In this document: positions 1,833-57,073 of the stretch, piece after piece
How the letters are laid out: each line of letters starts with the position of its first letter
Position numbering within the stretch: the stretch's first letter is position 1
From: Alphaproteobacteria bacterium
Lineage (GTDB): Bacteria > Pseudomonadota > Alphaproteobacteria > G963923945
DNA: 64,000 bases
Assembly: GCA_963923945.1 (NCBI GenBank)
Contig: OZ000551.1
Span: forward strand, 1,752,413 to 1,816,412
Direction: 5' to 3'
Program-made: the position numbers and the translations under genes
The notes under the pieces: model-generated
The model's database searches: none
What the model saw: only the letters and a program-made list of their open reading frames with translations
What the model was told of the DNA's origin: nothing

Positions 1833-2569
1833 CTGAATGATCCTCTTTTTTGGTTTTATTTGGCTTTGTCTCGTTTGGTCTTGTCTCGTTTGGTCTTGTC
1901 TTCATCAACATTGATCTTATGGGGTGGGTGCATCCGGTTGATCCGGTTGGCAACCCGGTTGGGGTGGGGGGCTTCTGTTGCCCGGCGCCCCCCGAGCCGC
2001 GCTTGCTTTAAGTCACCAAAGGACTAAGCAGCGAGAGCCAATTCATTATCGTTGGCATCTATAAAGATGAGCCGTTAACGGCGGCATCCCACCGGGTGAA
2101 AGTCAAGCCCTTTCCACATGCGTCGATCCTGTTTCGCCCCCATTCTTACAATAAATAACCCCAAATAACTCCGAAATAATCCCGCTTATGATTGAGGCAT
2201 CGCTGTCATCATTGAAAGATATTGCAGTCGATATCGTTCATAAAGAGACATCCCGTATCAATGGTGGAGGCGCCGGGTACTGCCCCCGGGTCCGCCACGG
2301 GTCTTGACATGACGTTTATCACCATAGTCGGAAAACCATTGCTGACTAACCGACTCTATGAATATAAACTTTTAAACTTGAGCTTGCAAAGGGCATATGA
2401 CATGACGGCTTAACCCATTGGCGATGGCTGTGGCAATCGGGCAAGCTGCGTTTTTATTGCCAAGCCGATGAATAGATGGGTGAATTGATGAAAGAAAATA
2501 GATCAAAAAATATGACAGTCCGTGTTGTTATTCCTGTTTCATTGATCTGTGAACTGAGTCGAGGACCCT

Positions 2570-3697
2570 TTGGCTGAGACTTTTCATTCCCCCATCGCTG
2601 GCCACCAGTCTGACCAGGAAGAGAGCAAGCCGACCCAACATGGTGTCGGCTCCCATGCACCATCCCGGCGGCTCTCGGCGCAGCAAGAGGTCGAGATTGC
2701 AGACCAAAGAAAGGAAAAAAATCAGACATTGCGCGACTGCGCACCGGATATAGAAGAGCGGCTTTATCATCATATCCCGGTTTTGGATCATGGTTTTGTC
2801 CGGGTGATTGATTATATGGGCACCGATGCTGCCATCGTCCAGGCGGCCCGGGTCTCCTATGGCCGGGGCACCAAAACCCCCAGTCAGGATGGTCGATTGA
2901 TTGATTATTTGATGCGTCACCAGCATTCGACTCCTTTTGAGATGTGCGAGATCAAACTGCATGTCAAATTGCCGATTTTTGTGGCCCGCCAATGGGTGCG
3001 CCACCGCACCGCCAGCATCAATGAATATTCGGCCCGCTATTCGATTTTGGATCGGGAATTTTATGTCCCGGATCGCTTCCATAAAGAAGCCTTGAAAGAA
3101 ATGCTGCGGCCAGACCCGGAAGCCTCAGCCAGTCCGCACCTGGATGTTTTCCACGAGGATTCGAAAAAAACCACCCTGGCCAAGCAATCCTCGACCAATA
3201 AGCAAGGCCGTGGGGATGCGGCTGAGGATGAAACCTTCAATCAGGCTTTGCGGGCCTTGCAGACCGAATCCAACCGGGCCTATACGACCTATGAAAAGCT
3301 TTTGAATGAGCGCGATGGCCAGCCGGTTGATCCCAGCCGTCACGGCTTGGCCCGGGAATTGGCCCGGATGATTTTGCCAACCAATTTTTATACCCAGTGG
3401 TATTGGAAAACCAATCTCCATAACCTGATGCATTTTCTGACCTTGCGGGCTGATCCCCATGCCCAATATGAAATTCGGGTTTATGCCGAGGCGATCATGG
3501 AGATTTTTCGCTGTTGGACGCCGCTGGCCTATGCTGCTTTTATCCGCCATCGCCGCGGCGGGGCGCGTCTCTCGGCCCCGGCCTTGGATGTGGTCCGGCG
3601 GTTGTTGAATGGCGAAAACGTAAATCTTGAGGAGAGTGGTCTCTCAGCGCGTGAATGGCGGGAATTGATGGTGGTGCTGGACCGGCCGGAGGCGTGA
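2570..3697 (+). CDS. thyX: flavin-dependent thymidylate synthase ThyX (start codon uncertain; has internal insertion and N-terminal extension)
   Basis: Contains the ThyX signature RHRTASINEYSARYS (RHRxxxxxS) and the N-terminal HGFVRVIDYMGTDAAIVQAARVSYG block. Confidence 0.85.
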   Translation: MAETFHSPIAGHQSDQEESKPTQHGVGSHAPSRRLSAQQEVEIADQRKEKNQTLRDCAPDIEERLYHHIPVLDHGFVRVIDYMGTDAAIVQAARVSYGRGTKTPSQDGRLIDYLMRHQHSTPFEMCEIKLHVKLPIFVARQWVRHRTASINEYSARYSILDREFYVPDRFHKEALKEMLRPDPEASASPHLDVFHEDSKKTTLAKQSSTNKQGRGDAAEDETFNQALRALQTESNRAYTTYEKLLNERDGQPVDPSRHGLARELARMILPTNFYTQWYWKTNLHNLMHFLTLRADPHAQYEIRVYAEAIMEIFRCWTPLAYAAFIRHRRGGARLSAPALDVVRRLLNGENVNLEESGLSAREWRELMVVLDRPEA

Positions 3698-4166: not shown

Positions 4167-4970
4167 ATGAATCTTTTAGGTAACGCGGTTCAACGGTTCC
4201 GATGGGCCGGGGTGGTGGTTGTATTGGGGATGTTGATATGCCCTCGCCTTGAGGCGGCTCCCCTTTCCTGTTTTGACTGGGATACGGCTGATTTTTTTGA
4301 GCAAGCCCGTTTGCAGGATGTGACGGCCTGCCTGGAAAAAGGATATGATCCCAATGCGCCTGATGAGTATGGATTGACGTCTTTGCATTTTGCGGCTCGG
4401 CACAGCAATCCAGCGGTGATCACCACTTTGCTGGATGCCGGGGCCGATCTTCAGGTTTTCGGTCCGTATATGAAAACGCCCCTCCATTATGCCGCCCATT
4501 ACAGTCAAAATCCGGCGGTGATCACCACCTTGTTGGATGCCGGGGCCGATCTTAAAGCTCTCGGCGGGTTCTATGGGGAAACGCCCCTCCATTATGCGGC
4601 TCGATTCAATAACAATCCGGCGATCCTCACCACCTTGTTGGCTGCCGGGGCGGATATTCAGGCCCCGGATAAAGATGATGAAACGCCTCTGCATGATGCG
4701 GCTGAATATAATCAAACCCCGGCCGTAATCACCGCTCTGCTGAATGCCGGGGCCGATCTTGAGGCGCTGAATAATCGCGGTGAGACTCCTTTGCATGACG
4801 CGGTTCGGGTCAATAAAAATCCGCAGATTGTTGCCACCTTACTGAAAGCCGGGGCCGATCCCAAAGCCCAGACCAAGGAGGGTAAACAGCCTTGGGAATT
4901 GGTCAAGAAAGACTCACCCCTTTATCAGAGTGCGGTTTATGAGGTTTTGCGGCAAGGCGAGACCGAATAA
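4167..4970 (+). CDS. secreted ankyrin-repeat protein (about 6 ANK repeats)
   Basis: N-terminal signal peptide (VVVLGMLICPRLEAAP); repeated TPLHxAA...NPAVITTLLxAGAD 33-aa units; N and C termini are paralogous to the next gene. Confidence 0.85.
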   Translation: MNLLGNAVQRFRWAGVVVVLGMLICPRLEAAPLSCFDWDTADFFEQARLQDVTACLEKGYDPNAPDEYGLTSLHFAARHSNPAVITTLLDAGADLQVFGPYMKTPLHYAAHYSQNPAVITTLLDAGADLKALGGFYGETPLHYAARFNNNPAILTTLLAAGADIQAPDKDDETPLHDAAEYNQTPAVITALLNAGADLEALNNRGETPLHDAVRVNKNPQIVATLLKAGADPKAQTKEGKQPWELVKKDSPLYQSAVYEVLRQGETE

Positions 4971-5093: not shown

Positions 5094-6938
5094 ATGAAGA
5101 CTTTAGATATTGTCGATGCGGCGCGTTTTATATGCCCGATGACCAAACGGTTCGGCTGGGCGGTTGTGTTGGGGCTGTTGATGCTGGTGCCTGCGCGGGC
5201 TGAGGCGACTCTCTCCTGTTCGGACTGGAATACGTATGATTTTTTCAACCAAGCCAGCCCGCAAGATGTGACGGCTTGTCTGGATGCCGGGGCGGATATT
5301 CAGGCCCGCAATAAGGATGGATGGACTCCCTTACATCTTGCGGCGGGACTCAATGAAAACCCGGCGGTGATTACCACCTTGCTGAAAGCCGGAGCGGATA
5401 TTCAGGCCCGCAATAAAGATGGATGGACTCCCCTGCATCAGGCAGCGGGATTCAATGAAAACCCGGCGGTGATTACCACCTTGCTGAAAGCCGGGGCGGA
5501 TATTCAGGTGCGCAATAAGGATGGATTCACTCCCCTGCATCTTGCGGTGGAATTCAATGAAAATCCGGAAATGATTACCACCTTGCTGAAAGCCGGGGCC
5601 GATCTTGAGGCCCAGCACAAGGATGGATGGACTCCCCTGCATTATGCGGCGGAAGACAATGAAAATCCGGAAATGATTACCACCTTGCTGAAAGCCGGAG
5701 CGGATATTCAGGCCCGCAATAAAGATGGATTCACTCCCTTGCATTCTGCGGCGGGATTCAATGAAAACCCGGCGGTGATTACCACCTTGCTGAAAGCCGG
5801 GGCGGATATTCAGGTGCGCAATAAGGATGGATGGACTCCCCTGCATCAGGCAGCGGGATTCAATGAAAACCCGGCGGTGATTACCACCTTGCTGAAAGCC
5901 GGAGCGGATATTCAGGCCCGCAATAAAGATGGATTCACTCCCTTGCATTCTGCGGCGGGATTCAATGAAAACCCGGCGGTGATTACCACCTTGCTGAAAG
6001 CCGGGGCGGATATTCAGGCCCGCGATAAGGATGGGGCGACTCCTCTGCATTATGCGGCGGGAGGCAATGAAAATCCGGAAATGATTACCACCTTGCTGAA
6101 AGCCGGAGCGGATATTCAGGCCCGCAATAAAGATGGATTCACTCCCTTGCATTCTGCGGCGGGATTCAATGAAAACCCGGCGGTGATTACCACCTTGCTG
6201 AAAGCCGGAGCGGATATTCAGGTGCGCAATAAAGATGGATGGACTCCCCTGCATCAGGCAGCGGGATTCAATGAAAACCCGGCGGTGATTACCACCTTGC
6301 TGAAAGCCGGGGCGGATATTCAGGTGCGCAATAAAGATGGATGGACTCCCCTGCATTATGCGGCGGAAGACAATGAAAATCCGGAAATGATTACCACCTT
6401 GCTGAAAGCCGGGGCCGATCTTGAGGCCCAGCACAAGAATGGATGGACTCCCCTGCATCAGGCAGCGGGATTCAATGAAAACCCGGCGGTGATCAGCAGC
6501 CTGCTGGAAGCCGGGGCGGATATTCAGGCCCGCGCTAAGAATGGATTGACTCCCCTACATCTTGCGGCTCGGTATAATGAAACCCCGGCGGTGGTTACCA
6601 CTTTACTGAAAGCTGGGGCTGATTCTAACGCCCGCAATGAGGATAGGGCGACTCCTCTGCATTTTGCGGCGGGAGGCAATGAAAACCCGGAAATGATTAC
6701 CACCTTGCTGAAAGCCGGAGCGGATATTCAGGCCCGCGATAAGGATGGGGCGACTCCTCTGCATTTTGCGGCGGGAGGCAATGAAAACCCGGAAATGATC
6801 ACCACCCTGCTGAAAGCCGGGGCCGATCCCAAAGCTCGGACCAAGGAGGGTAAACAGCCTTGGGAGTGGGTTCCTGAGGATTCTCCCTTGCGTGAAAGTG
6901 CGGTTTACTGGATTTTGCATGAGGCTCAATTTCAATAA
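5094..6938 (+). CDS. secreted ankyrin-repeat protein with about 15 near-identical tandem ANK repeats
   Basis: Signal peptide (AVVLGLLMLVPARAEA); 33-aa units such as AGFNENPAVITTLLKAGADIQARNKDGWTPLHQA, encoded by nearly identical 99-bp DNA repeats. Confidence 0.9.
   Translation: MKTLDIVDAARFICPMTKRFGWAVVLGLLMLVPARAEATLSCSDWNTYDFFNQASPQDVTACLDAGADIQARNKDGWTPLHLAAGLNENPAVITTLLKAGADIQARNKDGWTPLHQAAGFNENPAVITTLLKAGADIQVRNKDGFTPLHLAVEFNENPEMITTLLKAGADLEAQHKDGWTPLHYAAEDNENPEMITTLLKAGADIQARNKDGFTPLHSAAGFNENPAVITTLLKAGADIQVRNKDGWTPLHQAAGFNENPAVITTLLKAGADIQARNKDGFTPLHSAAGFNENPAVITTLLKAGADIQARDKDGATPLHYAAGGNENPEMITTLLKAGADIQARNKDGFTPLHSAAGFNENPAVITTLLKAGADIQVRNKDGWTPLHQAAGFNENPAVITTLLKAGADIQVRNKDGWTPLHYAAEDNENPEMITTLLKAGADLEAQHKNGWTPLHQAAGFNENPAVISSLLEAGADIQARAKNGLTPLHLAARYNETPAVVTTLLKAGADSNARNEDRATPLHFAAGGNENPEMITTLLKAGADIQARDKDGATPLHFAAGGNENPEMITTLLKAGADPKARTKEGKQPWEWVPEDSPLRESAVYWILHEAQFQ
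5290..6830 (+). repeat. coding tandem array of 99-bp units with higher-order near-exact repeats over 200 bp
   Basis: Direct reading shows blocks such as ...caataaagatggattcactcccttgcattctgcggcgggattcaatgaaaacccggcggtgattaccaccttgctgaaagcc... recurring almost verbatim; the antisense ORF 5331-6458 is a repeat artefact. Confidence 0.9.
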
Positions 6939-11415: not shown

Positions 11416-11762
11416 CCGCCTTTAATGACAGTGTCTTGAGCATATTTATACTCTCAAGCATATTGATATGACTTTAAGTTGCGTTCAATAATCAACGATC
11501 AGTATTGCAGCGTGATGCCATGAGCAAGATTTTAAAGACAAAATTGTAACGACAAGATTTTAAGCAGGGGTTCTGGGAGTCTTTATCGGATACTGTGAAT
11601 ATTTAAGATGCTGAGGTGATTGTCATATTTACACCATATTGGTGTTCCATTTCTGATTGTTGGCGGTATTTTTAGTCATGTATTCTCACTCATCACGTAT
11701 TTGTTTTCATTAAACACATAATTTTAATACTGTCGTATTTTTATATTGGAGGTCGGATCACG

Positions 11763-13331
11763 ATGTCTTTGTCGCATATGATCACGCATATCACTGTTTC
11801 GCGCCTTGTTATCATCCGTCTTGTTATCATCCGTCTTGGGGCCATTTTTTTGGTCCCGCGCGGTGGGTTCAAGAGGCCCCGCTTAGCGGGTGGTTTTCCT
11901 GTTGCATTTGTGGTTGCCCTGGTTTCCTGCCTGTTATGGGTTTCTCCTAGTGCAGCCCGTCCGGCCCCTGATGGTTTTGCTGATCTGGCCGAGAGATTGT
12001 TGCCTGCGGTGGTTAATATCTCGACCACTCAAGAGATGCAGCAAAGTGAGATGGAGCCCAATTTTCCGGTTCCAAAACTGCCACCCGGTTCCCCTTTTGA
12101 AGATTTTTTCCGCGACTTCATGGAACGTGGTCGTCCCAACCCCCACCGCAACAGTCACTCGCTCGGTTCTGGATTCGTCATTGATTCGGGTGGCTATATT
12201 GTCACCAACAACCATGTCATTGCTGAAGCATCTGAGGTGCGGGTAATCTTCCACGATGGGAAACAACTTGAAGCTGAGGTTATTGGTCGTGACGATAAAA
12301 CGGATTTGGCCCTGCTTAAAGTGGAGAGTGACACCCCTTTGGTTGCGGTTCCTTTTGCTGATTCCGATCAGGCCCGGGTCGGTGATTGGGTGGTGGCCAT
12401 CGGCAATCCCTATGGTCTTGGCGGAACGGTGACGGCGGGGATTATTTCGGCCCGGGCTCGGGATATCAATTCCGGTCCTTATGACGATTATATTCAGACC
12501 GATGCCTCAATTAACCGAGGCAATTCCGGGGGGCCTTTGTTCAACCTGCAAGGTGAAGTGGTGGGCGTTAACACGGCGATTTTTTCGCCAACCGGCGGCA
12601 GTATTGGGATCGGTTTTTCGATTCCGGCCAATTTGGCCAAGCCGGTGCTGGCGCAATTACGTGAGTTTGGTCAGACCCGTCGCGGTTGGCTGGGTGTGCG
12701 GATTCAGCAAGTGACCGATGAAATTGCCGATAGCCTGGGGATGAAGGAAGAAACCGGTGCTCTGGTGGCCAAGGTCAATCCCGGCGAACCAGCAGCCAAA
12801 GCCGGTATAAAACCAGGCGATGTCATTATTGAATTTGATGGCAAGCTGGTGCCGGGTGTACGTAAGCTTCAACGTATTGTCGCTGAAACCGATATCAATC
12901 GACCGGTTCGGGTCACAGTGTGGCGCGATGAGGGCGAGAAAGTCCTGACCGTCACCGTGGGGGAGCTTGAATCCTTTGAAAAGGCGGCCCTCTCGAAAAG
13001 CGGTGATGATACAACCCAAACCACCACCCAGTTTGATGGTATGGGGATGACGCTCTCTTCCTTGACCCCTAATCTGCGCCGCCAATTTGATCTCAAAGAT
13101 GTTGATGCCGGTGTGGTGATCACCGATGTCGATAAAGATGGTCAAGCCGCCGAGCGCGGGCTGCGCCAGGGCGATGTGATTGTCGAAGTGGGGCAAGAAG
13201 AGGTCAATTCACCCGATCAGATCAGTCAAAAATTGGAAGAAGCCGCCAAAAAAGATAAAAAATCTGTGTTGTTTCTGGTCGAACGTGAAGGCGATTTACG
13301 CTTTATTCCGATGAAATTACGTTCGGGCTAG
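11763..13331 (+). CDS. degP: periplasmic serine endoprotease DegP/HtrA (start probably downstream, near the signal peptide)
   Basis: Catalytic triad context (GNSGGPL), trypsin-like domain plus two PDZ domains; signal-like segment AFVVALVSCLLWVSPSAA. Confidence 0.85.
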   Translation: MSLSHMITHITVSRLVIIRLVIIRLGAIFLVPRGGFKRPRLAGGFPVAFVVALVSCLLWVSPSAARPAPDGFADLAERLLPAVVNISTTQEMQQSEMEPNFPVPKLPPGSPFEDFFRDFMERGRPNPHRNSHSLGSGFVIDSGGYIVTNNHVIAEASEVRVIFHDGKQLEAEVIGRDDKTDLALLKVESDTPLVAVPFADSDQARVGDWVVAIGNPYGLGGTVTAGIISARARDINSGPYDDYIQTDASINRGNSGGPLFNLQGEVVGVNTAIFSPTGGSIGIGFSIPANLAKPVLAQLREFGQTRRGWLGVRIQQVTDEIADSLGMKEETGALVAKVNPGEPAAKAGIKPGDVIIEFDGKLVPGVRKLQRIVAETDINRPVRVTVWRDEGEKVLTVTVGELESFEKAALSKSGDDTTQTTTQFDGMGMTLSSLTPNLRRQFDLKDVDAGVVITDVDKDGQAAERGLRQGDVIVEVGQEEVNSPDQISQKLEEAAKKDKKSVLFLVEREGDLRFIPMKLRSG

Positions 13332-26245: not shown

Positions 26246-26321
26246 GGGCGCATAGCTCAGTTGGTAGAGCAGCTGACTCTTAATCAGCTTGTCCGGGGTT
26301 CGAGTCCCCGTGCGCCCTCCA
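26246..26321 (+). tRNA. tRNA-Lys (anticodon CTT)
   Basis: GGGCGCATAGCTCAGTTGGTAGAGCAGCTGACTCTTAATCAGCTTGTCCGGGGTTCGAGTCCCCGTGCGCCCTCCA folds as a cloverleaf; anticodon stem GCTGA/TCAGC with loop CTCTTAA; the CCA end is encoded. Confidence 0.9.
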
Positions 26322-26324
26322 TAT
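26311..26324 (+). repeat. att-like direct repeat, left copy (the tRNA-Lys 3' end)
   Basis: tgcgccctccatat. Confidence 0.4.
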
Positions 26325-26519
26325 CGCAAAATTATTGTTATATATCAATAAATTATTTCTTGCAGCATGTATGTATGTAGCGGGCGGGTTCGTTTTGCAT
26401 CGTTTTTTTGTGGATCACGTTTGTCGCCCTATGGGTGGCAAGGGTGTCAAGAGCTTCTGTTGCCAGGCCTTTTCTAAGGCCTTGATGATCGCTTGATTGG
26501 TTATGAAGGAGGTTTTTTC

Positions 26520-26993
26520 ATGAATCTTTACTCCAGCTTAACAAAAGAGGAAAAGAAAGAGGCCTTAAAAAGGCATCGTGCCTGGTTTCAGGAATGGCAT
26601 TCTCTAAATGAAATCGATAATTATTGGGAATCAAATGGCTGCCAATGCTTAATCTTTGAACCCGGCGGGTCTTTACGTGAAGCATGGGGCTTAAAAGAGT
26701 TTATGCATATATCTAAGGCTGGTAAGGGACGGCTGATCAAGGCTGATAGACCCAACTTTGAAACCGACATATCGGAAATTTGGGAGTTTACGGAAGTCCT
26801 GGATGGTGACCGAAAACGCAACGCTGAACACAAGGAAGCATTGGCTTGGTATCAATCTGGAAAAAGGGGGTCATTTATCAAGGAAGATGATCATGAAGAT
26901 CTGGAGCGTTCGGTTCAAAACGTGCCCAAACGTCTCAAAAAATGTGCAGAGAAAAAGTCCAGAAGTCATATCCCGAGGGCACAAAGCTTTTAA
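26520..26993 (+). CDS. hypothetical protein (islet cargo); possibly continues in another frame to 27214
   Basis: ATG at 26520 preceded by AGGAGG (26507-26512); no recognisable domain; the overlapping +1-frame ORF 26942-27214 could join through the A6 run at 26936-26941. Confidence 0.4.
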   Translation: MNLYSSLTKEEKKEALKRHRAWFQEWHSLNEIDNYWESNGCQCLIFEPGGSLREAWGLKEFMHISKAGKGRLIKADRPNFETDISEIWEFTEVLDGDRKRNAEHKEALAWYQSGKRGSFIKEDDHEDLERSVQNVPKRLKKCAEKKSRSHIPRAQSF

Positions 26994-27384
26994 TTTATCT
27001 TGATGTCATTGGCGGATATTCGGACCGCGCGCGAGAAATTCTGCCATGCTTTGTCCCATCCACGCAACCGGCCAAAGATGCGTTTGCAGAAATATGCATC
27101 CTTTGGGGTGAGGATATCTATCCATTATGGAAGGATGGTATGCCTCACCCAGAAAGAGGTAACTGGATTGAGCGCGACAGTGACGATGACTTAAAAAGAG
27201 ATGAATCAGGATAGGACCAACATTCAGTCGGATTGAGGCGAGATATGTAGGGGGTGTCAATGGGGCAAAATGGCCTACAGGTCAGTTATAATGGAATAAA
27301 AACCTCGCCGGGGTTGCGTTCAGTTTGGCGACCGGTGACGCCGGTTCCGGCGTAGGCTTTAAGATTAACGTCAATCAATCTTGT

Positions 27385-27414
27385 TTGCAGGGGTGTTCCG
27401 ATTTGGGTTATACT
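27385..27414 (+). promoter_or_regulatory. sigma70-like promoter candidate (TTGCAG-N17/18-TATACT)
   Basis: ttgcag at 27385-27390 and tatact at 27409-27414, about 15 nt upstream of the GAGGAG RBS and the ATG at 27429. Confidence 0.35.
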
Positions 27415-27428
27415 GGCCCGAAGAGGAG

Positions 27429-27620
27429 ATGGTGATGACCGAACAAGAACAAAAAGAGTGGGATTTGAAGCTGCGCGAGATTGATGCCCAGATCGCCAAT
27501 TTGAATGCCGCAACCGATAAATTGATCACCGAAAATCGTTGGTATGTTCCAGCCGTCAGTGCTGGCATTGCTTCGGGGGCCACCCTGGCGATTGTGGCCA
27601 TCGTCAAGCTGTTTCTCTAA
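27429..27620 (+). CDS. small tail-anchored membrane protein (coiled coil plus C-terminal TM)
   Basis: MVMTEQEQKEWDLKLREIDAQIANLNAATDKL... then AVSAGIASGATLAIVAIVKLFL; RBS and promoter-like hexamers upstream. Confidence 0.4.
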   Translation: MVMTEQEQKEWDLKLREIDAQIANLNAATDKLITENRWYVPAVSAGIASGATLAIVAIVKLFL

Positions 27621-27634
27621 ACCGCCGCCTTTAG

Positions 27635-28030
27635 GTGTCGCTTTACCCATTATTATCTGATCTCCCGGCCATGTTGACTCGGTTTCTGATTGCGGTTTTG
27701 GTCGTTCTGTGTCTGAGCGTGACTCCGGTACGGGCAGATCGGATTGATGGCAACTGGCTCCATCAAGTCTGTCATGATGGAAACGACCCACAGGCTCCTA
27801 CCGCATGCTCATCTTATATTACTGGGCTGTCAGACGCCTCTCATCCGGCAATCGCCACCAACCTGTTGGGTTTAACCGGCTACTGCCGACCAGAAGGGGT
27901 GACCAGGGGACAAATTATGGACATTGTCAAAAAATATCTTGCCGGCCATCCTGAAGAACGCCACCTCCCGGCGGTGGTGCTCTATTATCATGCCATCATT
28001 GAAGCTTTCCCCTGCACCACGGGTAATTGA
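27635..28030 (+). CDS. secreted cysteine-containing protein resembling the Rap1a/Tai4 (T6SS amidase immunity) family (tentative)
   Basis: Signal peptide; the pattern C..Y.TG..D.......GYC.PEGVTRGQ....VKKYL..HPEERH....VV....A....FPC recalls the Rap1a immunity fold; 15 nt downstream of the preceding small gene. Confidence 0.35.
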   Translation: MSLYPLLSDLPAMLTRFLIAVLVVLCLSVTPVRADRIDGNWLHQVCHDGNDPQAPTACSSYITGLSDASHPAIATNLLGLTGYCRPEGVTRGQIMDIVKKYLAGHPEERHLPAVVLYYHAIIEAFPCTTGN

Positions 28031-28314
28031 TAACCGGGTGGGTTGGTCCTGAAGTCGGTCCCACTGTACCCATCAATCGACCATCATTGACTGCATCCTC
28101 GTTGAGTCAACACGCGACCAGCCGCCTTTAATATGGGCAGGCGTGATCTTTGGCTTTGGGGCCAGCGGATCCCGACCAATCATCTGTTTGAACGAGTCTT
28201 CGCCATGCTGGGCTTGCAGAGTTTCGAGAAAATGAACAGCGTCATACGGGAACAATGACGCATAAAGGGAAGTGTATTTTGGTCAATGATTCCGGAAACG
28301 ACCAACTCCCTCAG

Positions 28315-28506
28315 TCAAAAGGATTTTTTAAGGCCAGCTTGTTTCAGTACGGTGTTTGCTAAATGCCGCGATTTGATTGTTGAATCAACAGTAAAGACCA
28401 CCCCCTCTTTGGTGACCTAAATTTCGTGATCCCCGCGCCCTTGACGCTTGCGGTAGCAACCATCTTTTTTGAGCAATCTTTTAAGTTCTCGCGTGTAATC
28501 CGCCAT
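28315..28506 (-). pseudogene. hicA: hicA-family toxin gene inactivated by an in-frame amber codon
   Basis: Reverse-strand reading: ATG at 28506 gives MADYTRELKRLLKKDGCYRKRQGRGDHEI, then TAG at 28417-28419, then VTKEGVVFTVDSTIKSRHLANTVLKQAGLKKSF in the same frame to TGA at 28315. The stop sits where HicA proteins have a conserved aromatic residue (GSHxI[WY]). Confidence 0.6.
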
Positions 28507-28762
28507 TTATTGGTAAAGGAATTGGGCCATTATGAGCAGAGAGTGTCACGACCGGAGATTCGGTCAAGCCTTTCAGCCCGCCATCTTCTATCAAATCTAC
28601 AATAACGATTGGGATTCTTTCAAAGAGCCGATCAAGGCTGGAATCTTCCAAAGCTAAATTGATATCGTTACTGGTCGCAATCCATACTTTTGCTTCTGGG
28701 TCAAAAGAGCAAGAAACAGAAATATCAACTTTTCCATGATTGGGCATCATTTTTCTCCCCAA
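28481..28762 (-). CDS. hicB: HicB-like antitoxin (DUF1902/UPF0150-type)
   Basis: ...VDISVSCSFDPEAKVWIATSNDINLALEDSSLDRLFERIPIVIVDLIE... matches the DUF1902 pattern; its 3' end overlaps the hicA start by 26 nt. Confidence 0.55.
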   Translation of the reverse strand: MGRKMMPNHGKVDISVSCSFDPEAKVWIATSNDINLALEDSSLDRLFERIPIVIVDLIEDGGLKGLTESPVVTLSAHNGPIPLPINGGLHART

Positions 28763-28911
28763 AAAAACACCCCCACATTTACTTTATTGAGCAATTTTAT
28801 CGTAACTTATTAATATTATTAGCGTCAAATTGCGGCCGCATGGAGCAGTTTTTCAGCGGGACATTTTTTCATTGATTGTGTTGAATAAATTGGCTTGTTT
28901 GGCAGGCCCAA

Positions 28912-28925
28912 TGCGCCCGCCATAT
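28912..28925 (+). repeat. att-like direct repeat, right copy (13/14 identical to the tRNA-Lys 3' end)
   Basis: tgcgcccgccatat, about 35 bp before tRNA-Glu. Confidence 0.4.
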
Positions 28926-28959
28926 TTCCACGATCATGGGGAAAATAGAAACAAAAACA

Positions 28960-29037
28960 TGGTGACCCCAGCGGGATTCGAACCCGCGTTGCCAGAATGA
29001 AAATCTGGTGTCCTAGACCTGACTAGACGATGGGGTC
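28960..29037 (-). tRNA. tRNA-Glu (anticodon TTC)
   Basis: The reverse complement GACCCCATCGTCTAGTCAGGTCTAGGACACCAGATTTTCATTCTGGCAACGCGGGTTCGAATCCCGCTGGGGTCACCA has anticodon loop TTTTCAT and is close to E. coli tRNA-Glu. Confidence 0.85.
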
Positions 29038-29457
29038 ATCGGTGTTTTCGCATGTCCATATAACAAAATAAGATCAAACGAAACCATGTGAAGTCTTATT
29101 TCACATTTTTTATGATTTTCACATTTTTTGCGACTCGGTAAAAATCATATGCTCTCTACTGCTGCATCAAATGTTCAATAATACAAGATAAAGCAGGGGA
29201 CAAGTCCCCTCAACTCTGAATCATTTTTCCTGGCATGTGTTGCCTGAAAAGCGGTGCTTTGGGTTCGACCGAAAGGGTCACCCGTCTGGCCACGGCCTCT
29301 TATTTGCGGCACTGTTGGCTGTATTGGTGTCGATTGCTGGGTGTATATACAGATATCGTGAATCATATTAAAACACCTGTACCCAACTTGGTTTATTGTT
29401 TTTATTGCCGTACTCCTGTAGCAAAGAGACAGGTCTTTTGATCCAGGGATTGATGAG

Positions 29458-31006: not shown

Positions 31007-32776
31007 TCAGGCTGTGGCGGCGTCTTTGATATGAAATTCGGCATTTTCGCGGCCATTCCAAAAATTTTTGTAGATGACTCCGGCGATATGGAGCGGTTTC
31101 CCGAGACTGGAAAGCAAAAAAGGCCCCAATCTGTTCTCATCCATGGCCCGAAAGGCCATCGCCTTGAGACGTGCGGTTCCCTGCCCGGTCACAATACAGT
31201 GTAGATGACCATGGCCAACCGGCCGGGCATCAACCAGCCGGGCAGCGTTCAGAGCAAAAACTGGCCGCGGATTGCCGATCCCGAATGGCGCGGCCCGCTC
31301 CAGAGCGGTGGCCAGATCCACGGTGACCGATTGGGGAGCCAAAACACCGTCAAGAGTCAAAATATGCGGTGCGTTGTCTATATGCTGGGCCGCCCGATCC
31401 CTCAAGAAGGCGGCAAAATCTTCAAGATGATGGCGATCAATGGTTGCCCCGGCGGCCTCACGATGCCCACCAGCCGATTGCGCAAGACCCGATTGTCGAG
31501 CCGCAATCACCGCCGCACCGATATCGAATCGGTTGGCCGAACGGCCAGAGCCGCGTAAAGTGTCACCAACCCCGGCAAAGACGAAACAAGGGCGATGGTA
31601 TTGTTCGGCCAGACGTCCAGCAACAATGCCAACAATGCCCGGATGCCAGTCGGTTCCAGAGACAATAAGAACGGCTTGATCGGTTTGGGTGGCGGCTTGG
31701 TGGCGGGCTTGGGTCAGAACGGTTTCTTGAGTCTGGCGGCGTTGGCTATTCAGATGGTCGAGTGCGGCCGCCAAATGATTGGCTTGGTCCGGGTCATCGG
31801 TGGTGAGCAGACGCACAGCAAGGCTGGAATCGCCAAGCCGTCCCCCGGCATTGATGCGCGGCCCCAAGCCGAAACCAAGGGCGGCGGCATCATAGTTCTC
31901 AATGGCTGCGTGGGTTGCCAAAGCGGCCAAGCCGGGGTTGCGGTTGGCCCGCATGACCTTGAGACCTTGAGCGACAAAGGTCCGGTTGAGGCCGGTCAGG
32001 GGCACCGCGTCACAGACGGTTCCCAAGGCAACCAGATCAAGCCAATTCATCACATCCGGTTGCGGAACCGCCTCGGTGAAAAAACCCCGCCGTCGTAAGA
32101 TGCGATTGACCGCCACCACAACCAGGAATGTGACCCCAACCGCGGCCAGATGGCTGAGGCGGCCATCTTCATCAAGCCGGTTGGGGTTGACCAAGGCGGT
32201 GGCTGGTGGTGGTGCCGGTTCGGCCTTGTGGTGATCAATCACAATCACCGGCACTTGTGATGATGCCAGGGCATCATGGGCGGTGGTCCCGCAATCAAGG
32301 GTGATGATGAGGGCGGCCCCGCGCCCAGCCAGATCAGCCAAAGCCCCCCGGTTGGGTCCATATCCTTCGGTCATCCGGTCCGGGACATGGAACAGAGTCG
32401 GGCATCCCAAGGCCTGGAGATAGCGGATCATCAAACCGGCCGCGGTTGCCCCATCGACATCGTAATCGGTCAACAGACCAATGGTGGCTTTCTTTTCAAC
32501 CTGATCAGCGATGATGGTGGCGGCGCTCTCCATATCGCATAAACCAAAGGGATCAGGCAGGCTGTTGCGCAGGCGCGGGGTGAGATAATCAGCCGCTTGA
32601 TCAAGGCCGATATGGCGCCCAACCAAGACCTGGGCCAGAAGTTCAGGAATGTTATGGCGTTGGCATAAGGCCAGAACGGCCCGCTCATCCTCCCGGCGCC
32701 CAATCCAGCACCGTCCGGTGGCCGAATCGCCAACCCCTAAAAGGGCGGTTTCCGGCATATCGGCGCATGGCATCAT
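31007..32776 (-). CDS. recJ: single-stranded-DNA-specific exonuclease RecJ
   Basis: DHH motifs (VIVIDHH), DHHA1 domain, 589 aa. Confidence 0.85.
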   Translation of the reverse strand: MMPCADMPETALLGVGDSATGRCWIGRREDERAVLALCQRHNIPELLAQVLVGRHIGLDQAADYLTPRLRNSLPDPFGLCDMESAATIIADQVEKKATIGLLTDYDVDGATAAGLMIRYLQALGCPTLFHVPDRMTEGYGPNRGALADLAGRGAALIITLDCGTTAHDALASSQVPVIVIDHHKAEPAPPPATALVNPNRLDEDGRLSHLAAVGVTFLVVVAVNRILRRRGFFTEAVPQPDVMNWLDLVALGTVCDAVPLTGLNRTFVAQGLKVMRANRNPGLAALATHAAIENYDAAALGFGLGPRINAGGRLGDSSLAVRLLTTDDPDQANHLAAALDHLNSQRRQTQETVLTQARHQAATQTDQAVLIVSGTDWHPGIVGIVAGRLAEQYHRPCFVFAGVGDTLRGSGRSANRFDIGAAVIAARQSGLAQSAGGHREAAGATIDRHHLEDFAAFLRDRAAQHIDNAPHILTLDGVLAPQSVTVDLATALERAAPFGIGNPRPVFALNAARLVDARPVGHGHLHCIVTGQGTARLKAMAFRAMDENRLGPFLLSSLGKPLHIAGVIYKNFWNGRENAEFHIKDAATA

Positions 32777-53210: not shown

Positions 53211-54785
53211 TTGGCTCCGGCCCGTGCGACCACAATGACCGAATCTGTCTTGATCCTTGATTTCGGGTCGCAGGTGACCCAGCTGATTGCCCGCCGTGTG
53301 CGTGAAAGCGGGGTTTATTGTGAGATTCACCCCTTTAACGCCTTGGATGATCAAGCAATCAAGGATTATGCGGCCAAGGCCGTCATCCTCTCAGGCGGCC
53401 CGGCGTCGTTCGGTTTTCATGAAGCGCCCCGGGTGCCGACGGCGGTTTTCACCCTCGGGGTGCCGGTTTTAGGGATTTGCTACGGCCAACAAGCGCTTTG
53501 TGCGCAGTTGGGTGGTGTTGTTGAATCCAACCGGTCGCGTGAATTCGGGCGGGCGGTTCTGGAGATTCAAGCACCATGCCGTCTGTTTGATTCGGTCTGG
53601 AAACCGGGGGATACACCGCAAGTATGGATGAGCCATGGCGACCGGATTACCCGCTTGCCGGAAGGATTCAAAGCGGTTGCGGCCAGCCAGGGTGCACCTT
53701 ATGCGATTATTGCTGATGAGGCCCGGCATTTTTACGGTGTGCAATTCCATCCCGAAGTGATTCATACTCCGGATGGAGCGGCTGTGCTGAATCATTTTGT
53801 CCGTGATATTGCTGGCTGTCGGGGTGATTGGTCGATGCAAGCGTTTCGCGCCCGGGCCGTTGAAGATATCCGGTCCAAGGTCGGGGATGGTCGGGTCATT
53901 TGCGGTCTCTCAGGGGGGGTTGATTCCTCGGTTGCCGCCGTCCTGATCCATCAAGCGATTGGTCAACAACTGACCTGTGTATTTGTCGATACCGGCTTGT
54001 TGCGCCAGGGTGAGGCCAAAGATGTGGTCGCTTTGTTTGGTGATCATTTCAAGATTCGTCTGATCCATAGGGAGGCCGGGGCGGTGTTTCTCTCCGGCCT
54101 CAAAGATGTCACCGACCCGGAGCGCAAGCGCAAGATTATTGGGGGTCTTTTCGTTGAGCTGTTTGAGCAAGAGGCAACCGCCATCGGTGGGGCGGATTTC
54201 CTGGCTCAAGGCACCTTATATCCAGATGTCATTGAATCGGTTTCGGTTGCTGGGGGTCCTTCAGCGACCATTAAATCGCATCATAATGTGGGGGGGTTGC
54301 CCGAACACATGCAAATGACTTTGGTTGAACCCTTGCGGGATTTATTCAAGGATGAGGTGCGTATTCTGGGTCGGGAATTGGGTCTCCCTGCGGACATGCT
54401 GGGCCGCCATCCTTTCCCAGGCCCGGGATTGGCCATTCGTATCCCCGGCGTGGTGACACAGGAAAAACTGGCTATTTTACGCCAAGCCGATGCGATTTAT
54501 CTGGATGAAATTCGCCGGGCCGGGTTGTATGATCAGATATGGCAGGCTTTTGCCGTGCTTTTGCCGGTCAAGACGGTCGGTGTGATGGGGGATGCGCGCT
54601 CTTATGATTATGTCTGTGGGTTACGGGCGGTGCGAGCAACCGATGGTATGACCGCCGAAAGTTATCCTTTCTCCCATGAATTTCTCACCCATACCGCCAC
54701 CCGAATCATCAATGAGGTGAGTGGGATCAATCGGGTGGTGTATGATGTGACCTCCAAACCCCCCGGCACCATTGAGTGGGAGTGA
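53211..54785 (+). CDS. guaA: GMP synthase (glutamine-hydrolysing)
   Basis: GATase1 domain ([18 protein letters not shown]...GICYGQQ), ATP-PPase SGGVDSSV motif, C-terminal dimerisation domain. Confidence 0.95.
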
Positions 54786-54889
54786 TTTTTCTCTGAAAAA
54801 CAACTCTTGCCAGGGGTTTGAATTGACACTCAATGGACTCAAAAATGGATGAGCCTGAAGCAAGAAAGAACAAATAAAGCGATAACACG

Positions 54890-55672
54890 ATGTCCAGAAA
54901 CCCGTTACGGAAACTTCGTTTTCTTATCAGAACGAACGCGCCAATTTGGGCGATCACTACGTATTTTTGTCTCCATTATCGTCATCGTTTGTCGCATAAA
55001 AGAGGTGAATTTAAGAAACTGCAAAAAGATTTTAGAGAAAAATCAAAAAACCTAAAGATTGATAATGATTGGTTTACAGAAAATATCCCGACTTGGTTGA
55101 GAGCATTTCAAGAGGCTCAACTCGACTCTGATCAAGCATTAAAATGTTTAGAGATTGGGAGCTGGCAAGGCTTATCAGCTTTTTTTGTTCTTGATGTTTT
55201 TCCTCATGCACAGATCACATGCGTCGATACATGGGAGGGTGGTGATGAACATAAATCATTTAATGCCTCGACGCCGCAAATACTTGGCGGCATAGAGATG
55301 TGTTTTGATCTGAATCTGAAACAGTTTTCCGATAGAACCAAAAAATATAAAGGGACCTCTCGTTCCTATTTTAATGATCAAATTACCTCTGATGGGTTCG
55401 ATTTGATCTATGTTGATGGTTCCCATCACTGTGATGATATTATGGTGGATGCTGTTCAATCATTTGAAATCCTTAAAGTCGGAGGTCTGCTCATATTCGA
55501 CGATTATTTTTGGGAATATTATGACAATGAAATTGATAATCCCGCTGGAGCGATCAACGCATTTTTACGCTTGAAACGCCATCAGCTTGAAATTATTTGC
55601 TTTGACTATCAGCTCATCATCAGAAAATTGCGCCGCTCAATGAGGATTGAGGGTCCCCATGAGACCAGGTGA
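54890..55672 (+). CDS. class I SAM-dependent methyltransferase (Methyltransf_24/TylF-like O-methyltransferase family)
   Basis: LEIGSWQGLSAFF...VDTWEGGDEH...FDLIYVDGSHHCDDIMVDAVQSFEILKVGGLLIFDDY. Confidence 0.55.
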   Translation: MSRNPLRKLRFLIRTNAPIWAITTYFCLHYRHRLSHKRGEFKKLQKDFREKSKNLKIDNDWFTENIPTWLRAFQEAQLDSDQALKCLEIGSWQGLSAFFVLDVFPHAQITCVDTWEGGDEHKSFNASTPQILGGIEMCFDLNLKQFSDRTKKYKGTSRSYFNDQITSDGFDLIYVDGSHHCDDIMVDAVQSFEILKVGGLLIFDDYFWEYYDNEIDNPAGAINAFLRLKRHQLEIICFDYQLIIRKLRRSMRIEGPHETR

Positions 55673-55991
55673 ATTTGGTGGTTTTTAGAAGGATCTGCGC
55701 AAAATATTTTCCCGCATAATACGCATATGTTTCATACGCATATGTTTCTAGGTGCGATGGCGTTTGAGCACCGCAAAAGGCGTTGATACTGTTAGGGGTC
55801 TGCGTATAGTGCAGAACTTTGATTGCTTCTGGGCGACAAGACCGCTCAAGCCGTTTTTATGAAGGGAATTGACCTCAGCAGTGGAAACCGGATTATTGGC
55901 GTATGACCAGTCTCTGCCTGATTGTCGGGATGTTTCATTTGTCGGCTTTTTTAGACGATACCACCTTTTTTATGATACCGCCATGGATTCA

Positions 55992-56765
55992 TCAATCGGG
56001 TAAAACATACCAGTCATCAAACTGCGAATGAGAAGTTAATATTCTTGTGTAGCCTTGTTTGGTCAGCAATGCATAAATTTTTTCTCGGTTCGATGTGTTG
56101 TTATGCTCACAAGTGATGATTTTGAATCGATATCTTTGGAAGTTCAGAGATTGCAGGATATCCAATTCGCTTCCTTCGGTGTCAATTGATAGATAATCCA
56201 TCATATGTGGAGCGTTATATTTTTCCAACATATCACTGAGGGAGATGGTCAATACCTCATATAAACTGCCATTTTTGCGTGATTTCTTATGCTTATCGCT
56301 GTTAGAAAATTGATCCAAAGTCGATAACCCAATCTGTTTTGTTTCATTGAAAGTCAATGTCGTACCTGTCGTTTTCCATACACAATTCGTTTCAATGTTT
56401 GCCGTCCTATTTTTCTTCAGACAAGCATGGAATTTCTGATCTGGTTCGGCCAAGATACCACTCCATCCGAACCGTTTCTCCAATAAATGGCTGTTGGAAA
56501 AAAGAACACCATCACATGCGCCGAATTCAACAAAATATCCATCACGTTTGAAGCCCGATTTACCCAGCACCAGTAAATCTTGCCCCAGCTGCGATGTGGC
56601 ATAGTCTATATTCTCAAAACAGCGTGCCCAATATTTTTCTTCGATCTGTCGACTGACTTCATAAAGTTGGTATTTTCTCGAATTCTCCAGCTGCTTTTCA
56701 AGAGATGATTTTCGAACAAGTTGACAATCGAATACCCCAAGAATTTTATTGATATAATGTTTCAT
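55992..56765 (-). CDS. FkbM-family methyltransferase
   Basis: FVEFGACDGVLFSNSHLLEKRFGWSGILAEPDQKFHACLKKN and ...LSIDTEGSELDIL are characteristic of Methyltransf_21/FkbM. Confidence 0.6.
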   Translation of the reverse strand: MKHYINKILGVFDCQLVRKSSLEKQLENSRKYQLYEVSRQIEEKYWARCFENIDYATSQLGQDLLVLGKSGFKRDGYFVEFGACDGVLFSNSHLLEKRFGWSGILAEPDQKFHACLKKNRTANIETNCVWKTTGTTLTFNETKQIGLSTLDQFSNSDKHKKSRKNGSLYEVLTISLSDMLEKYNAPHMMDYLSIDTEGSELDILQSLNFQRYRFKIITCEHNNTSNREKIYALLTKQGYTRILTSHSQFDDWYVLPD

Positions 56766-57073
56766 GTTCTTTTTTTATTCTCAGCTGATGCGATTTTTGA
56801 AATGAAAATCCTGTTCATAGGAAATCCTGTTCATAAAGATGTATTTTCAGCAAAACCTTTTTGATATTCTCCTCAACATTAAGGGCGTTACTTGCGCTCA
56901 ATATGCATCTGAGAGACACTCTTTTATGTTTTTTACGGCATGCTCATATGATTTTTTGATCAATGTTTTTGTAAAGGCATTGACGTCTTTTCGTTTCCCG
57001 GTATAGTCCTGTCCCCTTGGCTTCAAGGGGTTGATGCGGCATAAAACAAAATCTATAAAATAACAAAATTTAT

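Follow-up and report, generated by a model that had tools for sequence, protein, structure and literature searches.

The subject of this analysis is the interval of 2,638 bp between two convergent tRNA genes, tRNA-Lys(CTT) and tRNA-Glu(TTC), in a stretch of 64,000 nucleotides (nt) from an alphaproteobacterial genome (GenBank assembly GCA_963923945.1, contig OZ000551.1), which we refer to as the window and in whose numbering positions are given unless they are assigned to another contig. Comparison with close relatives leads us to interpret this interval, with a probability of about 0.6, as a small, hypervariable accessory locus flanked by tRNA genes, mosaic and decaying, which comprises at least three blocks of differing history. 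A preliminary description of the window had presented the same DNA as an islet left by one old insertion at tRNA-Lys, bounded by an att-like (attachment site) repeat of the tRNA 3' end, that had lost its mobility genes and kept its cargo. The non-core and partly pseudogenised character of the interval and its variability between sister genomes are borne out by our data, but a single att-bounded insertion is not: a sister genome keeps the central part of the interval and is without the two separate blocks that flank it.

The interval in two sister genomes

Both tRNA genes direct their 3' ends into the interval, and tRNA-Lys closes the conserved synteny block mreBCD-PBP2-rodA-tRNA-Lys. Exact-match queries with the window RodA and with ORF1, the first open reading frame (ORF) of the interval, led to no contig, and the two close relatives were reached via 90%-identity clusters of window proteins. 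L174 (ENA ERZ22157276, a 64.3-kb contig) shares 85.1% identity with the window over 9 kb, and L175 (ENA ERZ25067576, a 2,069,867-bp contig) is 81-82% identical; across eight core genes, synonymous divergence (dS) between the window and L174 amounts to 0.50-0.66. L174 is the sister genome and L175 the outgroup.

L174 has the same gene order as the window on both sides of the interval (ilvBHC-leuA-mreBCD-PBP2-rodA-tRNA-Lys ... tRNA-Glu-mmsA-recJ-icd), and its two tRNA genes are spaced by 742 bp. The limits of the insertions and deletions were set using blastn and MAFFT. Homology between the window and L174 covers tRNA-Lys and 77 nt beyond it, to 26398, is found again from ~27363 to ~28062, and then continues at the CCA end of tRNA-Glu, with the tRNA-Glu segment being 98.9% identical. 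The central block (27363-28062), which holds a 61-amino-acid (aa) gene (62 aa in L174) and a gene of the Rap1a/Tai4 family, is kept in L174 at 74% nucleotide identity, and what is missing are the flanking stretches, blocks A and B (Table 1). In L174 the 3' flank of the Rap1a-like gene joins the CCA end of tRNA-Glu with zero spacer. The L174 counterpart of the 61-aa gene is intact and 56% identical at the protein level, and the gene is under purifying selection, with a ratio of nonsynonymous to synonymous substitution rates (dN/dS) of 0.18 between the two. The L174 Rap1a-like gene (11700-12053 of that contig) is a frameshifted pseudogene that has suffered a 13-nt deletion and lost its ATG. The PBP2 gene of L174 (8165-10038) is called as two overlapping ORFs, possibly owing to a frameshift or an assembly error.

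A true empty site would consist of tRNA-Lys ...CCATAT running straight into TTCCACGATCATGG and then tRNA-Glu. The preliminary description had looked to related genomes for such a site, with the two tRNA genes abutting, and L174 does not provide one: its tRNA genes still flank the 61-aa gene and the Rap1a pseudogene, so that the interval is not present or absent as one unit. In L175, homology ends ~29 nt past tRNA-Lys and is followed by an FkbM methyltransferase gene and a 137-aa ORF. The 137-aa ORF was considered as a relative of the 61-aa protein, and the methyltransferase as a relative of the FkbM gene of the window, but no similarity was seen in either case. The conserved flank 26322-26398 falls within what had been described as the islet. 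This AT-rich flank also contains an imperfect 16-nt direct repeat (26321-26357; ATATCGCAAAATTATT and ATATCAATAAATTATT, spacing 21 nt) that starts from the last base of tRNA-Lys and is partially conserved in both sister genomes.

In the interpretation that we favour, the central block would already have been in place when the lineages of the window genome and L174 split, and blocks A and B would represent separate insertion or deletion events flanking it, with the direction being either loss in L174 or gain in the window lineage. Loss in L174 would fit because both blocks are pseudogenised and because the junction at tRNA-Glu is without a spacer; gain in the window lineage would fit because of the lower guanine-plus-cytosine (GC) content of the two blocks and the mobility of toxin-antitoxin (TA) cassettes, one of which lies in block B. 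Whichever direction applies, the att reading is left with little force; with A and B as recent gains, the two repeat copies could not bracket one element because the middle of the interval is ancestral. It is plausible that the blocks come ultimately from mobile elements using tRNA-Lys as a hot spot. The decay, marked by an in-frame TAG in the toxin gene hicA, a frameshift in the ORF1/2 gene of block A and the frameshift in the L174 Rap1a-like gene, would be as expected for a ~2.1-Mb genome of host-associated look.

The 14-nt repeat and base composition

The repeat from which the att reading started does exist: TGCGCCCTCCATAT at the tRNA-Lys end and TGCGCCCGCCATAT near tRNA-Glu agree at 13 of 14 positions in direct orientation, with the discriminator base as the sole mismatch. 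The copies are separated by 2,587 bp, and the second lies in a 209-bp spacer (28751-28959). Its description as a classic attL/attR footprint is weakened by a better 18/20 match in recJ, a local P of ~0.02 and one matching base that is derived. For a fixed 14-mer with at most one mismatch, 0.04 occurrences are expected per 64 kb on both strands. The best local alignment (score 24, 18/22) was matched in 1.65% of Markov shuffles of 2.7 kb (P=0.0165), and this gapped 18/22 alignment at the attR-like site ranks third in the window. As a control we used 14-mers overlapping the other tRNA and tmRNA 3' ends of the window, again with at most one mismatch allowed; three chance matches, together with the one for tRNA-Lys, correspond to ~1 per 128 kb per end, or ~0.02 per 2.6 kb. 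Within the window the attR-like 14-mer is outscored by the 18/20 match between the tRNA-Lys end with its flank and recJ, for which the chance expectation is 0.01. This match cannot be an att site because it lies inside the codons of an intact housekeeping gene (recJ, 31007-32776, minus strand, with DHH, DHHA1 and RecJ_OB domains). A repeat search also returned an unrelated and equally good 13/14 repeat pair in the same 3.2 kb.

Two further possibilities were tried and rejected. A longer, gapped tRNA fragment at the attR-like site is represented at best by the third-ranking alignment just described, and Rfam detects no tRNA fragment there at E<=1. As to integration at tRNA-Glu, the islet contains no copy of the tRNA-Glu 3' end (local alignment P=0.5). 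The attR-like 14-mer was not found in L174 or L175. At position 26323, the A of the window (CCATAT) is a T in both of these genomes (CCATTT); because the outgroup L175 and L174 share the T, the A is derived, which leaves a match of only 12/14 with the flank inferred for the ancestor. We conclude that the 14-mer repeat is suggestive, statistically modest and not the best match in the window, and that the 13/14 agreement is most likely a chance similarity.

The drop in GC content reported downstream of tRNA-Lys turned out to be marginal. The GC content is 46.5% for the interval and 50.5% on average for the window. With a standard deviation (SD) of 3.1% among equal-size windows, the interval lies at -1.2 SD and at the 8th percentile; RodA, immediately upstream, has 46.0%, and the centre of the interval reaches 49-53%. 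Blocks A and B show the lowest values of the interval (42-46%). Strand-symmetric 3-mer and 4-mer distances place the interval at the 78th and 84th percentiles, respectively, so that a GC and k-mer profile, proposed earlier as a check, does not mark it as deviant, and the stretches at 3.8-5.6 kb and 54.4-57 kb of the window are far more deviant. There is no convincing compositional shift in the interval. The preliminary description had named two observations that would speak against it, namely ancestral gene content shared with related genomes without a shift in composition and a 14-bp match that does not stand out, and each of them was made in part.

The tRNA-Lys site and rival origins

Distant relatives were collected by RodA-based scans of genome and metagenome contigs, with RodA at no more than 62% aa identity among the matches listed. 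The order mreB-mreC-mreD-PBP2-rodA-tRNA-Lys(CTT) is conserved across Rhodospirillales (RodA 55-62% identity, among the matches listed); the rodA-tRNA-Lys arrangement is present in most of the Rhodospirillales relatives listed, and in all of them synteny stops at the tRNA. The content downstream is heterogeneous, with 78 ORFs matching 105 Pfam families, and a Phage_integrase gene lies within 4 kb downstream of tRNA-Lys at 2 of 48 loci. Exact direct repeats of the 3' part of tRNA-Lys were found at 2 of 55 such loci, L137 (9295-13264; a 44-nt repeat 3.9 kb downstream) and L148 (5152-8067; a 43-nt repeat 2.8 kb downstream), both beginning near the anticodon loop. The cargo of L137 includes helix-turn-helix and DUF2971 proteins and that of L148 an OpgC acyltransferase, and no integrase is evident between the repeats of either locus. 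In the order, the tRNA-Lys site is thus truly a hot spot for integration. The window interval is similar to the L137 and L148 islets in being a small accessory insert directly 3' of the orthologous tRNA and free of an integrase gene. However, those inserts are bounded by exact 43-44-nt tRNA copies and the window has nothing comparable; genuine scars at this site are exact and three times as long as the window repeat. None of the islet genes was seen downstream of tRNA-Lys among the 160 more distant relatives listed. In Nitrospirillum iridis (L012, 11288-11701), rodA is followed by a tandem duplicate of tRNA-Lys(CTT), with the copies 338 nt apart.

Islands integrated in tRNA genes are recognised in Islander (Hudson, Lau & Williams 2015, PMC4383910) by a displaced 3' fragment of the tRNA gene that lies downstream in the same orientation and reaches the tRNA 3' end, by a tyrosine integrase gene in or overlapping the island, by a length of 2-200 kb and by a fragment located outside conserved domains of coding sequences (CDS). 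The window interval resembles such islands in its intact tRNA gene, in the short, same-orientation, intergenic candidate copy of the 3' end 2.6 kb downstream, in the accessory cargo between the two, and in an identity block that starts at the junction of T-stem and acceptor stem, a recognised crossover subsite. Its length and the position of the fragment outside CDS agree with the Islander definition. In contrast to Islander islands, it contains no integrase gene, the fragment is 14 nt long at 13/14 identity, the sister genome L174 offers no empty site, the content is mosaic and the composition is unremarkable.

We weighed our interpretation against other origins of the interval. That the window lineage recently gained the two blocks independently, B at the 3' end of tRNA-Glu and A 77 nt past tRNA-Lys, starting from an L174-like ancestor and with the 14-mer being due to chance or having come with B, appears unlikely to us. 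The L174 arrangement, in which the Rap1a 3' flank meets the CCA end of tRNA-Glu, would place block B exactly at a tRNA 3' end, both blocks have the lowest GC content of the interval, and TA cassettes are notoriously mobile. Yet neither block has a terminal repeat or a target duplication, the islet is without a copy of the tRNA-Glu 3' end, and there is no donor candidate, the genes of A and B having no close homologue in 5.8 billion proteins. Both blocks also carry inactivating mutations, which fits old decaying DNA that L174 has already deleted, and the outgroup L175 is uninformative on this point.

The model put forward originally, in which 26325-28911 is one old tRNA-Lys-targeting element that crossed over at the junction of T-stem and acceptor stem and lost its integrase, with L174 having deleted both ends and L175 having replaced the content, we judge to be rather unlikely. 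It draws on a 13/14 direct repeat that is intergenic, lies in the right orientation and configuration and passes the Islander filters for length, orientation, configuration and CDS (PMC4383910), and on the 2.8-3.9-kb islets of L148 and L137, which lie at the same tRNA-Lys, lack an integrase and have 43-44-nt repeats; a TA module and a phage-associated Rap1a family are, in addition, typical cargo of mobile elements. On the other hand, neither an integrase nor a relic of one is present, so the Islander integrase filter is failed. Since the central block is ancestral, integration would have to predate the split of the window lineage from L174 (dS ~0.6), and we calculate the probability of neutral retention of 13/14 on one lineage as ~0.1 (dS/2 of ~0.3, Jukes-Cantor). 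The model further presupposes that T changed to A in parallel at 26323 and the matching attR position, as well as two independent and neatly positioned deletions in L174. The ~77 nt beside attL, which it supposes to be element DNA, are conserved like native flank, the 18/20 match in recJ arises by chance, and composition does not shift.

Several observations weigh against the mosaic interpretation that we prefer. A 13/14 match of a tRNA 3' end is improbable by chance once its position is counted (P ~0.02 beforehand), and 396 kb of sequence following the orthologous tRNA in 52 relatives contain no chance match of this kind. The identity block starts exactly at the T-stem/acceptor-stem junction, which is one of three Islander crossover subsites (PMC4383910), and the second copy lies between genes, in the last spacer of the interval. 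Close relatives number two only, and the L175 locus was seen to 1.9 kb past tRNA-Lys; two deletions in L174 could have produced the present pattern from one former element. Rap1a homologues occur on four viral contigs and in a few phage genomes, the family matches phrog_3870, and at locus L164 (545-2860) a distant homologue with 34% identity is situated two genes upstream of an integrase gene of the tyrosine type that abuts tRNA-Arg(TCG). In L164, the Rap1a family is thus represented as cargo of a tRNA-integrated element, at its integrase end.

In a bolder version, which we regard as improbable, the 14-mer would be the genuine scar of an ancient junction-type integration, the three genomes would represent successive stages in the decay of one element, and the 61-aa/Rap1a pair would be a retained orphan immunity module. 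If so, the window would keep nearly all of the cargo and attR, L174 only the core pair, and L175 would have had its content replaced; the pair would then shield a reduced-genome, apparently host-associated alphaproteobacterium from type VI amidase attack. That nothing foreign is involved, and that the interval holds lineage-specific, fast-evolving native genes whose differences reflect deletional decay during genome reduction, is very improbable: composition does not deviate, mobility genes are missing, the central block was inherited vertically and pseudogenes are frequent in these genomes (such as the split PBP2 of L174), but TA modules and Rap1a-family genes are distributed patchily and with mobile elements, three sister genomes have three different contents directly after the tRNA, and the site has been proven to be a hot spot of integration in the order.

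Gene content and surroundings

The coordinates of the relevant features are compiled in Table 1.

Table 1. Features of the tRNA-Lys/tRNA-Glu interval and its surroundings in the window.
Feature	Position	Strand	Basis or remarks
tRNA-Lys(CTT)	26246-26321	+	ARAGORN; Rfam 72 bits; CCA encoded
'attL-like' 14-mer TGCGCCCTCCATAT	26311-26324	+	3' strand of acceptor stem, discriminator, CCA, then TAT
AT-rich 3' flank of tRNA-Lys	26322-26398	unstranded	MAFFT/blastn and three-way flank comparison; kept throughout in L174, for the first ~29 nt in L175
Block A, missing from L174	26399-27362	+	contains ORF1/2
ORF1 and ORF2, one frameshifted gene, in block A	26520-26993 and 26942-27214	+	fused product compared with homologues
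Gene for 61-aa protein	27435-27620	+	N-terminal coiled coil, C-terminal hydrophobic anchor; GAGGAG ribosome-binding site
Rap1a/Tai4-family secreted protein, 119 aa	27671-28030	+	PF18602, 70.3 bits, E=2e-19
Block B, missing from L174	28063-28959	unstranded	60-aa ORF, DUF1902/hicA pair, attR-like 14-mer
60-aa ORF, unsupported, in block B	28073-28255		
hicA toxin pseudogene	28315-28506	-	in-frame TAG at 28417-28419
DUF1902 (HicB-like) antitoxin gene, intact	28481-28750	-	PF08972, 44 bits, E=2e-11, cut-off 22
'attR-like' 14-mer TGCGCCCGCCATAT	28912-28925	+	intergenic, inside block B, 34 nt from the tRNA-Glu 3' end
tRNA-Glu(TTC)	28960-29037	-	ARAGORN and Rfam; convergent with tRNA-Lys
Control match GCGCTCTCCATATCGCATAA	32523-32542	+	to tRNA-Lys end and flank GCGCCCTCCATATCGCAAAA, 18/20, direct; inside recJ codons (CDMESA)
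Methyltransf_24 gene	54890-55672		
FkbM/Methyltransf_21 gene	55992-56765	-	

A six-frame Pfam scan of 26322-28959 returned Rap1a, HicA_toxin and DUF1902 only and no integrase, excisionase or transposase signal, in agreement with the preliminary description; likewise, no integrase was found among ~45 scanned ORFs of the 64-kb window. Of the small genes after tRNA-Lys that had been described as unrecognised, the first two are one gene of ~230 aa that is broken by a 1-nt frameshift, one A having been lost in the A-run at 26952-26956. Adding back one A restores ...EKKVQKSYP..., in agreement with the family consensus, and over its entire length the fused ORF1/2 product can be aligned with six full-length homologues (203-223 aa). 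Among 1.84 billion representative proteins, an exhaustive search with HMMER yielded only seven relatives, all remote and 160-223 aa in length, and the conserved motifs of the family include RLV..(4)PDFE and E.WE.TEA. The AlphaFold2 model of the fused protein is confident and reached a predicted local distance difference test score (pLDDT) of 81 and a predicted template modelling score (pTM) of 0.79. The fused protein had no identifying match in Pfam, PHROGs, PADLOC, PDB or BFVD, and the contigs that carry the homologues are too short for their neighbourhoods to inform. ORF1/2 thus appears to belong to a very rare, uncharacterised family and, barring an assembly error in the A-run, would be inactive. 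In a word-indexed search of 5.8 billion proteins, ORF1 and the DUF1902 protein matched only themselves, and the islet genes seem to have no close homologues anywhere.

A tail-anchored membrane protein had been proposed among the cargo, and the 61-aa ORF with its C-terminal hydrophobic anchor conforms to this; its family matches are weak (C-terminus of PF07798, E=0.056; phrog_6330, E=6e-4). The Rap1a-like protein was also identified correctly by the preliminary description. Its PF18602 match covers 89 of 90 profile positions at a cut-off of 27.7 bits, it matches phrog_3870 (E=6e-17), and its sequence reads as having an N-terminal hydrophobic, signal-like segment that ends VRA|D. The gene is intact in the window, with its closest homologues being at most 41% identical. 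Rap1a and Tai4 are periplasmic immunity proteins against the type VI amidase (peptidoglycan hydrolase) effectors Ssp1 and Tae4, as described in Serratia marcescens (PMC3533786, PMC3852654). The window protein is similar to them in its full-length Rap1a match, putative N-terminal export signal, small size and conserved Cys residues. It differs from them in having no adjacent effector gene and no direct match in sequence to any Rap1a/Tai4 chain of solved structure, in the low identity to any homologue, in its pairing with the 61-aa tail-anchored protein and in the occurrence of homologues in phages. By analogy, the protein probably reaches the periplasm and there functions in the manner of Rap1a/Tai4, as an inhibitor of the immunity type directed at Tae4/Ssp1-class peptidoglycan hydrolase effectors. 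It would be an orphan because neither a Tae4/Ssp1 effector gene nor a gene of a type VI secretion system (T6SS) was detected among the ~45 scanned ORFs of the window.

Regarding the hicBA module of the preliminary description, the antitoxin gene is intact but the toxin gene is not. The TAG in hicA stands at the aromatic position of the family and is one point change away from TGG. With the stop replaced by Trp, the product matches PF07927 at 35.1 bits (cut-off 27) and the toxin family phrog_353 at 2e-14; read through the TAG, it scored 24.3 bits in the six-frame Pfam scan, so that the Pfam cut-off is reached only after repair. With GGGGAG as its ribosome-binding site, the DUF1902 gene extends 26 nt into the start of hicA, which lies on the same strand, and the 89-aa DUF1902 product matches PDB 1wv8 (TTHA1013) with E=2e-5. 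As in type II HicAB modules (PF07927 with DUF1902, e.g. TTHA1013, PDB 1wv8), two small genes overlap on one strand, and a HicB-type antitoxin gene lies adjacent and co-oriented. Unlike in these modules, an amber codon breaks the toxin ORF, the antitoxin gene comes first, and the short antitoxin has no DNA-binding domain by Pfam. We infer from the sequence that the cassette is now antitoxin-only and inert, its killing activity having been lost.

Elsewhere in the window, the most deviant composition coincides with two genes for ankyrin-repeat proteins of 267 and 614 aa (4167-4970 and 5094-6938, plus strand), the larger with at least 11 Ank repeats, which come after a permuted tmRNA gene (1963-2393, minus strand) and thyX (2570-3697). 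The region may represent an island that neighbours the tmRNA gene, though on its 5' side, and the ankyrin genes together with the ~2.1-Mb genome suggest a host-associated lifestyle. The second most deviant stretch (54400-57000) contains the two methyltransferase genes of Table 1 between guaA and rplU, possibly an acquired surface-modification cassette. The spacer between tRNA-Glu and mmsA holds two copies of a 13-nt direct repeat, TTTCACATTTTTT (29099-29129); in L174 this spacer is non-homologous and includes about five tandem 14-nt units (CGTCCCAATTCAAC, 12550-12625).

A mosaic accessory locus flanked by tRNA genes is an ordinary feature of bacterial genomes and has little import beyond annotation. 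For annotation, the locus illustrates that a short repeat of a tRNA end beside accessory genes is insufficient to call an integrated element, and the match in recJ is a caution for searching att sites by eye; one sister genome sufficed to split the presumed islet into three blocks of differing history. For the organism, the locus provides a small, dated example of accessory-gene decay in a little-sampled lineage with a genome of ~2.1 Mb that encodes ankyrin-repeat proteins: a hicA gene killed by an amber codon, a frameshifted orphan gene, and a Rap1a gene that is intact in one species and broken in the next.

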